Shown: positions 55,401 to 61,278, counted from the stretch's first letter. The stretch: DNA of 64,000 nucleotides from Adineta vaga (GCA_021613535.1 CP075493.1:3596001-3660000); one strand, 5' to 3'. Translations and numbers: made by a program. Notes: a model not told the origin generated them from the sequence alone.

Positions 55401-58400
55401 CTTATTTGAGATAATAAATGATCTTATTTTCTAATCTAATACGAATAGAAGTGAAAAAGAATGTGGAAGAAAAAGGTAGAATTTATTTATAGATTTGAAT
55501 TATTTCTAATTTCGAATATTTAGCTGGTGAATTGAAAGATCAAGCTGCGGAAAAAGTCGATGAAGCAAAAGATAAAGCAAGTGAATTGACGGCTGATGTC
55601 AAAGCTAAAGGCGAAGGTAATTTAAACGACATAAAGTTTTCGAAATGTTCTGAAATTATTGTTTCTATGTAGAAGTAAAGAATGACGCTGAACAAAAAGG
55701 TTTGATCATTAATTTAGAAAATCATTTGCATCGATTTCAATCTTTTAGTTGATGAATTAAAAGACAAAGCTTCGGAGAAGATTGATGATGCAAAAACTAA
55801 AGCTGAAGGTATTTCATTTTGTTTTTATCTCGTAAACTGAACTTAATAATTATTTCTCTCTGAATAGAAGTCAAACAAGATGTTCAAGAAAAAGGTATAA
55901 TGCTGCAGTTTTGTTTTGAAAATAGAATTATGTTGTTCATTTAGCTGGAGAAGTGAAAGACAAAGCTGTTGAACTAGCAGCTGATGCAAAAGCTGCAGGT
56001 CAAGGTAAAAATCATCAATAATTTTCAAAGGAAACCAGTTTAAAATTTCTATTATTAGAAGTGAAACAAGAAGTTGAACAAAAAGGTTTGTTCTTTTTTC
56101 TAAATTGATTTTCGAATGAAAACTTTCATTCTTTTAGCTGGTGAATTAAAAGATAAAGTTTCCGAAAAAGTTGATGAAGTGAAAGACAAAGCTGGTGAAG
56201 TTGCTGCTGATGTCAAAGCAGTAGGTCAAGGTAAAAGACGTTTTGTTTTGTAAAGGAAAACATTAACTATTTGCAAATTTATTTATTAGAAGTTAAACAA
56301 GAAGCTGAACAGAAAGGTTTTCTATTTCGTATTAGAATCTTTGTTCAATTAGAAATTTATTATTCTAGCTGATGAATTAAAAGATAAAGCTTCAGAGAAA
56401 GTTGAAGAAGCAAAAGACAAAGCAGGTGAATTAGCTACTGATGCTAAGGCGAAAGGGGAAGGTAAATAACATCTATATCTGTCGAGAAGAGATCATGATC
56501 TTGATATTTTTAGAAGTAAAAGAAAATGCTGAACAGAAAGGTTTGATTATTAACGAATGTAAGACATATTTTGAATAATTTTAAATATTCTAGTTGATGA
56601 AGTAAAAGACAAAGCTAATGAAGTCGCTGCCGATGTAAAACAAGCAGGCAAAGGTAACGAACATAATTCTTGATGAAAATGAATATTTGAATAGTATTTC
56701 TCTAATAGAAGTCAAAGCTGATCTTCAACAAAAAAGTAAATAAATTGAAATTATATTTTATATTTCATTCAACTATTCTCGTTTCGTTTTTAGCCGAAGA
56801 ACTTCCACCGAATAGTGACGCATGCAATTCACCAACGGACACGTTTGCGTTGTGACAGAACCAACCGATCAAACTGTACCTGCTAACACGACCGAAAGGA
56901 AATAAATATCAACAGATACAAAAATATATCCTCATCTGTTTTGACAGCCTTTCTTTCGTTTATCAACGTTGTGTATACATTATCCTTTCTTGCTGTGTGT
57001 GTGGGCATTTATTTATTTAACCTATAGTGTTGCTTTCAACTAATATTGAGACACTAGCGCATACACTTTACGAAATAAATTCTAATACTAACAATACTCA
57101 TCAAATTGAAACTATCATTTTACGTTTCCTGAAAATCTTATTAAAACATACAAATCTATTTTACCTGTTCCACTAGGATATTCATCGAAATACGATTGAT
57201 GTGGAGCCATTATAGATATATTATCATCTTCAGTTCGATTACAGGATGCACCTGAGAGAGAATAAATATTTTCATCAGTAAGAAATTCTTTCATTCAATC
57301 AATTCTTCTTACTTCCTCGACATTGTTGTGAATTTGGAAAATATTTTGATCGACATTCATTCGATTTTGTAACAAGATCTTCCTTTTAAAAACAAATAAA
57401 TCATCGCTACAGATAGATCAGTATCAAAATGAAAACAAAACTATATACATCACGTAAAGTCAGTGTAATTTTTAAATTCTGACAAAAACTTTGTGCAAAT
57501 TCCGGATACATATCAATCACTTCCAGTAAATCTTCTCGTAAGATTTTATGCAAATCACAATAAGTTAATGCACGAACATTAAACGCAGATTTGCCTGGTT
57601 CACTGTATAGCAGTGGATTCTCTCCAAGAATATCGTCTTTACCTAATGGAACAGAAAGAGAAATCATCGAAAGGCGTTCTTTTTTTATAGGTACATACTA
57701 AGAATAGCGACAACATTATCATCTTTCAAGATTTCTATAGATCCACGTGAAATAAAATAAATTGATGTTAAGATATCTCCTCGATGTGTTATGATATCAC
57801 CGGGTGGTGCATGTGTTGTCTTAAGTTTCATTGAAAATGTACGCAAACAACCGTCACTTGCATCTATGAAAAAAAAGCATTTAAAAGAAAAGAAAATTTT
57901 CTCTCAAACCTTTAAATGCTGCACAATTTTGCAACAATTGACTGTTTAAATGTAAGCAAATGTCTGCTTGTAAACATTCGGGAAAACCTTTCAAGACCAT
58001 ATTCATATCAATACCACTAGAATTTCAAAATAAAATGAAATTCGAAAGTAAATATATTGTATTTACTTTGTATAATTCCATGCGTGATTGAAATAATCTT
58101 CTAAACGTTGTCGAAGTGGATTTGGTATTTGATGAAAACGAATAAATTCTTTCACTCTATATGGAAACGATAAATTCATTTATAGACATCAATCTTTTCT
58201 TTGTTTATACCGTAACATTTGGATTTGATAACGTGCAGTACCCGAATATAATCTTTGAATAATAGCACTAACATTACCAAAAATACTGGCATACATCAAA
58301 GCTAAAAGAGAAGATAAATAGAAATTACGTGACGATTAATAGAACATAATTTGCAGGATATATCATATGGACATAAAAGCAAAATCAATCACATGCAGTT

Positions 58401-61278
58401 ATAATTTAAAAGCAATATTATACACTCTGTCTTTCTCACATCCGATTAACATAACAAAAATGGAAAAGACCTTTTCCATATTTGTATTCGGACTAACCTA
58501 AAAGAAAAGTAAATCGAATGAGAATTGTTTCGTTTGTTTTCTAATCTCTTACATTGCCAAAACCAACTGATGTAAGTGATGAAAATGTAAAATAAAGAGC
58601 AGTTATATATCTGGAACGAAGATTAGGTCCACCAATACATGAATTCGGATCAATTCGTGTTGATATTGTATCATTCGCAGATGAAAGTAATGAACAGTTA
58701 TATAATTGACCGGATGTGCGTGCTAATTCATCAAGCCATGTAATACGTAATCCTACAAAGAAGAAACGAAGCGAACACAAAACGACAACACAACATTGAC
58801 GACAACAGTGAGAGACGAAGACAATGAATCGAACGGAAACAAAACAAAAACAATTGAGAACTCACATCCTACGAGCATAATTATAATTGAAAAGCCCTTT
58901 TCACTATTAGTATTTGGACTAGAGAGAAGAGAGAAAGATTGCTAAGAAAGGAAAATTTTCGTTCGAAAATAATCGAGCTAACCTCACGTTACCAAAACCG
59001 ACTGATGTTAGAGAAGAAAAAGTAAAATAAAGAGCAGTAATATATTTGGATGTTTTCGTTGGACCAGATGTTGCATCTGAATCATCATAATACTGATGTG
59101 TATGATTAGCTAATTCAGCTAACCATCCAATAACTCTTTCAGTACCTAATGAAATTAAAAGGGAATATCTTCGCTCGAAAATATAATCAAATGAAATCTT
59201 TTCTTTTATCGTCTTATAATTGATTAGGATAAATTGATTCTATTTACCATTATTATTTCGTTCAAGACGACCAATTGCATACCATATACAAGCAAGCCAA
59301 TGTGCAATAAGTGCAAATGTAGCAGTTAATAAAATTAACACTCCAATACCATATTCGGAATAACGATCTAATTTTCTTGCAATACGTACTAATCGTAATA
59401 AACGTGCTGTTTTCAATAAACCCATTAAGACTGTTGATTCTCCGCCACCTTGTGTTTGTACAAATGAAAATAAAATATCGAAAGGTATAGCTGCTGTTAC
59501 ATCAATCAGAAACCATCCTTTAAGATAGTGTTTAGCAATTTTACTTGCACGTGTTACTAATTCTTCATTACGTTCAACATATGTCGTACGTAAATTAACT
59601 AATAAATCAATAATAAACATAACATCAACAATAAGTTCGATAACATTCAAGGCACGTGATGGTCGTGAACGTTGTTTATTCGGTCCATCTTCATGCATCA
59701 GAAAAGCTGCAATATATGGTGTAACAATAGCTGTATAGATTACAAGTAATAATATAAACCAATCCCATGCTGCTTTAATTGGCGAATAATGAAATATAAT
59801 TGTACGTGGAATACGACGACTATCCGGTAGACGAAAATCAGGTGCAACATCTTCACCTAAGGATAAAATCTGGGCAATATGATGCGGAATATTTGGTAGA
59901 AATGATCGATTTGTTTTGTTCGATTCTTTGGTTTCTTTTTTAATAACAGTTTCTAAATACAAACAAAGTCAATTTATGAGAATAAAAATTCCATTTAAAA
60001 ACAATGTCTTTTACCAGCGATATTACTTATACTTTGCGATTTATTTCTCATTAAATCAGCATCAGTATTATTATTATTCCATGGATTACCCTCTGGTTTT
60101 AATAAATTATTCGAACTTATTGAAGATTGTTGACTAATTTTATAATCCAATGGAAAAGTTTTTGCTGGCGGAGAATTTATTTCATCCAAATGAATCATTG
60201 TTGTCGTTTTATGATTTAAAGCTATTCAAAAATACACAACAAATGAAAATTTAATGGAAAAAAATGAATATATTTAGATTATCTGAATGATATTTAATTA
60301 AAACAGATGTAGAACATATATATTTAATTATTATCGAATATTCAACAATGATGAAATGAATCTTATCTATAAATTACTCGATAATTTAATTAACGCTCAA
60401 ATGTTCTCTCTTAAAAGAATGAGATGGATAACATCATTCATTACCTATATAACCTGGTGTCTCAATGGAAACAATTGGCGTTTCAGATTGATTTCCATCT
60501 TCAAATGAAAAATTCTTGTTCTGTGATGGTCGACGTTTTCCTAATGGATTTAACATATCTAACCATGAACGTTTACGAATTCCATCTAGAACAATCGATT
60601 AGAATGGCTCAATCAATAGAGAATATTTTCTCTACGTACTTGTTGGACTAATTGAGTACTCGTGAATTTTTGCTAGAAGGTTATATCATATGGAATATAT
60701 TGACCTTTAGTGTGAGAAAAAAAAGAAGTCTAAATTGATACATACGTATTCGTCGTGGACGATTCTGATCGATATTTTCAGTAAATTCTAAGATGAATAG
60801 AATAATATCGCATAATTCATTTTTCACCGGTGCAATTAAAACTGAACAACGAAATCTTGTACCTAAATACAAATAATCTAATGAAAACTCAAAGTATTAT
60901 ACGAAAGAAATTTACCAATATTTCGATATAAAACTATTTCCACTTCTTTTTCATCACTTCCATGTAATGCATGACGAATTTGTTTAATCGATTTTTCGCT
61001 TGTTTCAATTCCGTATAAAAATTCACATGTACAGGGCTTTTGAATAATATCTGAACGTGAATAACCAGTTAGTTCGCAAAAAGCATCATTACAATAAATT
61101 ATCGGTTTATTAGCCAATTGAGCATTGGATATAAGAAACCGTCGATCTAATTAAGACGAAAATATGTTTATGTCCTATTAATAATGAAAATATTCATACT
61201 TTGTGAGTCAAATTTACGTATAATTGTATCAATAAATGTATTTTGAGGAGCCGACACATGACCCCGTTTCATCGGCAT
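52459..61278 (-). CDS. KCNH2: ERG-type voltage-gated K+ channel (KCNH2/6/7 family), multi-exon, with duplicated pore exon and nested gene
   Basis: PAS-cap [26 protein letters not shown] domain, S4 [24 protein letters not shown], pore [23 protein letters not shown]6 [25 protein letters not shown], c[16 protein letters not shown], and C-terminal coil [23 protein letters not shown]; stop at 52459. Confidence 0.95.
53706..53716 (+). promoter_or_regulatory. Candidate TATA box of the nested LEA-like gene
   Basis: ctatatataag about 220 nt upstream of ATG 53931, with a splice acceptor (gtatag) 9 nt before the ATG. Confidence 0.35.
53931..56855 (+). CDS. Group 3 LEA-like hydrophilic repeat protein (~505 aa, 23 exons), nested antisense in an ERG intron
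   Basis: Exons: 53931-54003, 54068-54088, 54144-54272, 54532-54803, 54856-54942, 54998-55062, 55115-55149, 55209-55241, then 14 alternating modules from 55299 to 56735, and last exon 56794-56855. All introns are GT-AG and the total is 1518 nt in frame. A/K/E/D-rich 11-mers such as [11 protein letters not shown] and [11 protein letters not shown]. Confidence 0.85.
58553..58752 (-). other. ERG pore exon B (alternative)
   Basis: 200 nt, phase 1 to 0, flanked by tttgtag and gtaaga; encodes [67 protein letters not shown]. Confidence 0.88.
58988..59145 (-). other. ERG pore exon A (alternative)
   Basis: 158 nt, phase 1 to 0, flanked by ttcattag and gtgagg; encodes [53 protein letters not shown]. 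Confidence 0.88.

Follow-up and report, generated by a model that had tools for sequence, protein, structure and literature searches.

The shaker gene of the lobster Panulirus interruptus reportedly has two alternative pore exons, which are said to be single exons and to make channels that differ in gating and in their sensitivity to blockers. What it has in common with the rotifer gene described here is that a voltage-gated K+ channel is alternatively spliced in its pore-forming region (Kim et al. 1997, pmid 9334397). Shaker is however a Kv1 channel, whereas the rotifer gene is an ERG, and what is swapped in the rotifer is a pair of exons covering the long ERG turret as well as the outer part of S6.

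In NALCN, exons 15a/15b and 31a/31b are tandem, mutually exclusive exons that encode pore helices and filter; exon 15 takes in the start of S6, and the pairs are old and conserved (PMC3557258). There the filter residue switches between E and K in one of four domains, whereas the rotifer ERG has identical filters, a two-exon unit, and a tetrameric build that could let A and B subunits mix. Exons 12a/12b of invertebrate Cav3 encode either/or S5-P turrets with the same filter, one of them short and the other about 11–14 amino acids longer with more cysteines, and their use depends on the tissue (PMC4436565, PMC10017353). Cav3 is a four-domain Ca2+ channel in which the exon stops before the filter, and the demonstrated effect is on Na+/Ca2+ selectivity (PMC4436565, PMC10017353), whereas the rotifer switch is known from sequence and transcripts.

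A further parallel is found in the control of C. elegans unc-32 exons 7a/7b, which are single exons of a V-ATPase gene. UNC-75 (CELF), acting on a UUGUUGUGUUGU stretch between the alternatives, represses the downstream exon, and RBFOX, acting on UGCAUG after the downstream exon, helps to pick the upstream one in neurons (PMC3585155). Similar elements occupy the same positions in the rotifer gene; binding and neuron specificity are shown for unc-32 (PMC3585155), and are predictions for the rotifer ERG.

Within the ERG family, the human ERG1 isoforms 1a, 1b, 1c and USO also form heterotetramers, but their transmembrane core is identical and the termini vary (PMC9113952), whereas in the rotifer it is the pore that varies. 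Voltage-gated channels have more than their share of tandem duplicated exons (PMC9741552). One supplementary text file of that study has no entry for KCNH, sei or eag, the main text of a C. elegans survey of tandem exon clusters does not mention unc-103 (PMC4165533), and PMC3519636 has nothing on pore splicing. No report of an ERG pore switch, or of this rotifer gene, was found in a search mostly of freely available papers, supplements aside. The author of the initial annotation of the sequence knew of ERG variation at the termini and not of a pore-exon switch. Pore-exon switching is known from lobster shaker, NALCN and Cav3 and apparently undescribed for ERG, and the swapping of two exons as a unit is unusual.

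Gene identity and exon organisation

The gene lies on the minus strand of a stretch of 64,000 nucleotides from Adineta vaga (CP075493.1:3596001-3660000), here called the window, from whose first letter positions are counted. Its coding span, located by tblastn with the A. vaga protein P0005, is 57057-61278. The S1-S5 exon (234 residues) is 100% identical to P0005, and 86–94% identical to proteins from other Adineta and Rotaria species. P0005 contains PAS_9, Ion_trans and cNMP_binding domains above the Pfam cut-off, scores 880 bits with hERG and 536 bits with KCNH5/KCNH1 (EAG), and has hERG as its best match in the PDB. The protein has the PAS domain, six-helix channel and cyclic-nucleotide-binding homology domain of the ERG subfamily, together with a GFG filter, a long S5-P linker, and a closer relationship to hERG than to EAG as judged by scores and alignment rather than by a family tree. 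By sequence, the gene is a bdelloid ERG/KCNH channel, of which the fast C-type inactivation and inward-rectifying K+ current typical of the subfamily would be expected. Residue numbers of hERG used below were counted along alignments with hERG. The features are as follows.

57057..61278, minus strand: ERG/KCNH gene with PAS, S1-S6, C-linker and CNBHD (tblastn with P0005, Pfam, PDB match)
59248..59952, minus strand: common S1-S5 exon, 705 nt, ending in phase 1 (identity to P0005; donor used in spliced joints)
58983..59145, minus strand: exon A1, short turret, pore helix and filter, 163 nt (sequence and spliced joints)
58982..58987, minus strand: inner donor GTGAG, 5 nt before the end of A1 (sequence; present in 11 of 11 distinct loci)
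58866..58918, minus strand: exon A2, 53 nt, encoding the P-S6 linker and outer S6 of A (spliced joints)
58753..58865, minus strand: inter-module intron, 113 nt, 8% A, UG-rich (sequence)
58785..58795, minus strand: UGUUGUGUUGU element, candidate B1 repressor site (11/12 match to the UNC-75/CELF element of unc-32)
58553..58752, minus strand: exon B1, 200 nt, ending in phase 0, encoding a long two-Cys turret, pore helix and filter (sequence and spliced joints)
58440..58497, minus strand: exon B2, 58 nt, encoding the P-S6 linker and outer S6 of B (sequence and spliced joint)
58392..58397, minus strand: UGCAUG in the intron that follows B2, a candidate site for RBFOX (motif count over loci)
58211..58301, minus strand: first common downstream exon, inner S6 from hERG S649 onward (sequence and spliced joints)

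The initial annotation described two paralogous exons for turret, pore helix and filter on the minus strand, both entered in phase 1. Sequence and spliced joints bear this out, and the joints, together with the recurrence of this layout in each of 13 independent contigs, exclude a chance pairing. The limits then given for exon B (58553-58752, 200 nt) are those of the joints in all four sequencing runs. Exon A however had been drawn as 58988-59145 (158 nt, leaving in phase 0), whereas all four runs use a donor 5 nt further on, at 58983, and A1 ends in phase 2, within the S631 codon. The exon starting at 58497, with the residues VSPNT and S6, had been taken as common to both forms. In fact 58440-58497 belongs to B, and A has its own exon A2 (58866-58918), which was overlooked and is covered by contigs in all four runs. 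The duplicated unit is a two-exon module, consisting of turret, pore helix and filter, followed by the outer half of S6. The common inner-S6 exon (58211-58301) is entered in phase 1 and carries Y652 and F656.

Two introns elsewhere in the gene are worth recording. A 54-nt intron (58157-58210) follows the common S6 exon in the window and apparently in one related locus (L006, see below), while the 10 other loci that extend to this point have the two exons joined without an intron; the comparison marks it as a recent gain or loss. After the PAS exons there is an unusually long AT-rich intron (60226-60442, about 215 nt), and the in-frame ATG downstream of it, near 60200, is a possible start for a PAS-less isoform like ERG1b.

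Spliced transcripts

Of 18 sequencing runs listed, none is recorded as RNA; four, from three studies, were used. Their contigs were treated as cDNA because GT-AG introns are skipped in them. Such contigs drop rare variants: the presence of a joint is informative and its absence weak, and depths were not used to rank A against B.

The joints S5-B1 (skips 495), B1-B2 (skips 55), B2-common (skips 138) and A1-A2 (skips 64) are each present in all four runs. S5-A1 (skips 102) is present in two, and A2-common (skips 564) of this gene copy in one, as a single contig in run X13. A second, diverged gene copy, with 22 differences in A1, has its A2-common joint in two of the four runs; that its B module was not seen in the contigs is uninformative, because related B modules are 76–87% identical to that of the window and fall under the 90% threshold for contig matching. 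The pieces of A1 and B1 listed for runs X11 and X13 have no mismatching letters against the window. The joints A2-B1, A1-B2 and S5-common were not found among the contigs of these four runs from three studies, in which rare forms are dropped. In run X1, one contig with A1 spliced to A2 extends 60 nt into the inter-module intron (58806-58918), and is perhaps a partly spliced intermediate.

Both exons are spliced in the contigs, and no joint from A to B is seen in them. The modules are homologous alternatives between the same flanking exons, each in frame and each a two-exon unit, and each module alone is found in transcripts (for A2-common of this copy, in one run of four). We regard the switch as almost certainly real, expressed and conserved, and the choice between modules as very probably a strict one.

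Reading frame and junctions

It had been argued that inclusion of both exons, or of neither, would shift the reading frame. As an explanation for exclusion of the whole modules this is rejected: module A (A1 and A2) is 216 nt long and module B (B1 and B2) 258 nt, both multiples of three. Among 13 exon combinations tested, four reach the common exon without a stop, these being A alone, B alone, neither, and a hybrid in which the inner donor of A1 is joined to B2 (216 nt). With neither module the frame is kept and the pore is deleted. Inclusion of both is also in frame by length, yet creates a TGA at the A2/B1 junction, whose T is the final base of A2 and whose GA opens B1. If the inter-module intron is retained, the reading frame ends at a TAG. 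The earlier proposal of an either/or switch of the ERG outer mouth therefore holds in its core, on the evidence of spliced contigs and related loci, while its anatomy and its logic of exclusion do not.

The A2/B1 junction gives TGA in 14 of 14 loci, including the window. One A. steineri model has a B module beginning with Glu rather than Gly, and here too joining of A to B is predicted to make a stop. A role for this stop as a decay safeguard is plausible. Fourfold-degenerate sites are however invariant at 6 of 27 positions in A and 8 of 28 in B, and since about a quarter of them are invariant anyway, the fixed TGA may reflect chance or splice-site constraint.

The introns inside A and B are offset by 5 nt (58982-58988 in A and 58552-58553 in B, minus strand). 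That of B is in phase 0 after N629, and that of A in phase 2 inside S631, with A keeping a GTGAG at the position of B's site; this looks like intron sliding after the duplication. The offset means that splicing to B2 from the donor that A1 uses would be out of frame.

Turret, filter and outer S6

The stretch Y611-N629 is the same protein in A and B, encoded with 8 synonymous differences over its 19 codons, as the initial annotation recognised. Over the 38 codons that A and B share, 13 differences are synonymous and 5 change the amino acid; these five (636, 639, 643, 644 and 647) all lie in the P-S6 linker and outer S6. The filter, pore helix, S620, N/E588 and S631 are the same in both. Because the filter residues are identical in A and B of the window, this is not a selectivity switch of the NALCN type. 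A side observation concerns three Rotaria models from the second gene copy (P0023, P0032 and P0037), whose module B has Thr at hERG S624, beside the filter; this is the only change in that stretch among the bdelloid models.

The B turret of the window has 47 residues and the A turret 33, confirming that B is 14 residues longer and carries two Cys and the sequons NCS and NDT. Every intact B module has a loop 11–14 residues longer than that of A, flanked by two Cys and with one or two sequons. Both Cys are present in 13 of 13 intact B modules (12 tabulated, each with two), and in 14 of 18 gene models with a B turret, the other four being cut short. Two Cys in the turret occur in none of 118 distinct non-bdelloid ERG pores. 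Closure of the B loop by a disulfide is likely from these sequences. An AlphaFold model of the B isoform was set aside, having a mean pLDDT of 54 and a loop below 50.

The A turret had been called short and acidic. It is short, but only mildly acidic, with a net charge of −2 in the window and −1 in all 13 related loci. The sequons of B had been presented as a contrast with A; NCS and NDT are indeed found in B, but A also has a sequon, NHT, and in 11 of 13 loci a second, NDS, which is absent from the window. In the A1 turret (59063-59092) the window has Asp where 13 of 13 loci have an Asn matching hERG N598, and this copy has thereby lost that glycosylation sequon of module A.

In the helix corresponding to hERG 583-597, A and B differ at 7 of 15 positions (584, 587, 591, 592, 593, 594 and 596). 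A cysteine scan of hERG for effects on inactivation and K+ selectivity rated 591 and 593 as high-impact and the other five as intermediate (PMC2229555). No locus departs from the module-specific residues of turret helix and S6, and the Gly that A has at 639 is found in none of the 118 distinct non-bdelloid ERG pores. On these grounds a measurable difference in gating between A and B is likely, and it would most likely be the purpose of the switch. The difference may be small, since the classic inactivation residues and the filter agree.

Conservation and age

Thirteen metagenome loci (L001-L013) were found with a degenerate pattern for the A turret. They were taken as bdelloid because their A1 is 85–92% identical to that of the window. 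A1, A2 and B1 occur in the same order in all 13; 12 have an intact B filter, and 12 reach the common exon. Three loci (L009, L011, L012) were dropped before the counts as duplicates of L003 and L004, and L002 was excluded from the statistics for B on account of its garbled filter; the loci share kinship, and locus counts are not independent events. In L002 (846-1110) the filter and donor of B1 are garbled, while L013, which is 99% identical in A1, is intact. This is probably a sequence error, though it may be decay.

Both modules are under purifying selection, as the synonymous differences had suggested, with pooled dN/dS of 0.069 for A (11 sequences) and 0.245 for B (10 sequences). For pore and S6 the values are 0.009 for A and 0.071 for B. 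Within B, the loop between the cysteines has a dN/dS of 0.76 overall and 1.36 in four loci with short loops, against 0.20–0.23 in its flanks.

A and B sequences separate with 100% bootstrap, and within a locus they differ at 0.51–0.80 of silent sites; the duplication is therefore old, and homogenisation is not ongoing. Among 37 related gene models, 32 have the A turret, 18 the B turret and 15 both. A splice switch between two modules accounts for these 15, in which parts of both are fused into one impossible protein. Bdelloids are tetraploid, and in A. steineri, R. socialis, R. sordida and Rotaria sp. Silwood1 both modules are present in two distinct gene types each. From this distribution we infer that the duplication predates the split between Adineta and Rotaria, and the split between the two gene copies.

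A search with the B turret gave 10 matches among 16 candidates, 8 of them named bdelloid, and is a weak test of absence elsewhere. The non-bdelloid comparison returned 161 proteins, with 118 distinct pores fitting the pattern. Two of these proteins, P0128 and P0129, have two filters each, but the repeats are near-identical and look like artefacts of assembly or annotation. The Brachionus model has a single pore, being one gene model that is unable to show absence. The turret of this Brachionus plicatilis ERG (P0163) has Thr 584 and Asp 587 as in B, followed by a helix like that of A, a mixture as expected of an unduplicated, ancestor-like pore.

Control of module choice

Pairing of docking and selector sequences in the flanking introns had been suggested for inspection. 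No signal of such Dscam-type base pairing was found between introns, in any of 10 intron pairs over 9–11 loci, the mean duplex z being −0.8 to +0.9. Steric exclusion through an early branch point is likewise unsupported: across loci the inter-module intron is 79–113 nt long, exceeding neighbouring introns that are spliced (54–64 nt), and inspection of its sequence gave no branch-point candidate consistent across loci.

In 11 of 11 distinct loci the intron that follows B2 contains the motif GCATG, with 15 copies in 1243 nt as against none in the 3610 nt of the other four introns; the expectation from the rate in the window is about 0.05 per intron. In the inter-module intron, the UGUUGUGUUGU element (58785-58795) is the sole copy on the minus strand of the window, and 8 of 11 loci have TTGTGTTGT some 30 nt upstream of the acceptor of B1. 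The UG element is modestly above composition, its match being reached by under 3% of composition shuffles in only 4 of 11 loci. The arrangement is that of unc-32 exon 7, where a UG element separates the alternatives and UGCAUG follows the second. By this analogy A would be the neuronal form and B the default. For neuron-specific control of the choice by CELF and RBFOX, we judge the case for and against to be evenly balanced.

Discussion

Four other explanations for the pair of modules were considered. The switch may be real with B serving mainly as a shield, its cysteine loop and glycans capping the outer mouth against toxins or ligands with little change in gating. The rapid evolution of the loop relative to its flanks fits this, as does the retention of the cysteines and a sequon despite that rate, and long turrets restrict the access of drugs and toxins in Kir2.2 and K2P channels (PMC4436565). 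However, relaxed constraint is an equally good explanation for a high dN/dS in a stretch of about 20 codons, fixed residues in the 583-597 helix and outer S6 are exchanged with the module as well, and one scorpion toxin relies mainly on S631, which is the same in A and B, with the hERG turret secondary (PMC4108063). We regard a mainly protective role as rather improbable; it is also improbable that A and B are electrically near-equivalent, and are kept for glycosylation, folding or surface delivery in different cell types. To our knowledge there is no ERG-directed toxin from an enemy of rotifers. Near-equivalence would agree with the identity of filter, pore helix, S620 and S631, and with sequons and cysteines as the main visible differences, but it leaves aside the module-specific residues of turret helix and S6 that are fixed in all loci, including the Gly639 of A that the 118 other ERG pores lack.

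The choice could also be less than strictly two-way, if the inner donor of A1 were joined to B2 to give a third, hybrid pore with the turret of A and the outer S6 of B. The join would be in frame, and the GTGAG is kept in 11 of 11 loci although its Val codon is fourfold degenerate. It may however be retained as context of the donor that is used, and no such joint occurs in the four runs from three studies, whereas A1-A2 is found in all four; we think this quite improbable. Finally, one of the modules might be a duplicate that has decayed, or the two might have been joined in assembly from homeologous loci, as the initial annotation itself cautioned. Bdelloids do carry several gene copies, and L002 has its garbled B filter. 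Against this, both modules are spliced to the same flanking exons, without a mismatching letter in the A1 and B1 pieces from X11 and X13, and both are under strong purifying selection, which disposes of the idea that only one exon is ever spliced while the other decays. The assembly question was judged from L001-L013: the same order recurs in these 13 independent contigs, and the second gene copy can be told apart by its A1 differences. Decay or misassembly is thus extremely improbable.

On balance we think it probable that the gene splices in one of two two-exon modules, and that the resulting subunits are likely to differ in gating and to be chosen by cell type. The A and B subunits would have a common filter with a different turret and outer S6. 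We hypothesise that the default route runs from S5 to B1. In cells with CELF and RBFOX, probably neurons, the UG-rich element would be bound and the B1 acceptor repressed, and the GCAUG site after B2 would aid the joining of A2 to the common exon; stray transcripts containing both modules would be removed by nonsense-mediated decay. B would add a loop that is probably closed by a disulfide and glycosylated, and A would place a glycine at 639, at the top of S6. Because of the differences in the 583-597 helix, the B loop and Gly639 of A, inactivation and voltage dependence should differ, with the K+ selectivity motif and the inner drug site unchanged. A bolder version is doubtful: that the coupled swap provides neuronal and non-neuronal ERG under a CELF/RBFOX code shared with nematodes, that B carries a disulfide-stapled, fast-evolving cap not seen in other ERGs, and that C-type inactivation differs sharply between the two.

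If the A and B channels do differ sharply, they would form a natural chimera experiment on the turret and outer S6 of hERG. A standing question about hERG is by what means its long turret and the upper end of S6 produce such rapid inactivation. Here natural selection has provided two turrets for a single channel that is otherwise identical and keeps one filter, and voltage clamp could read their effect directly. The finding extends pore-exon switching to the ERG family, whose described isoforms differ only at their termini, and in a less common form of switching, in which two exons are chosen as a unit and the wrong junction is guarded by a stop codon.
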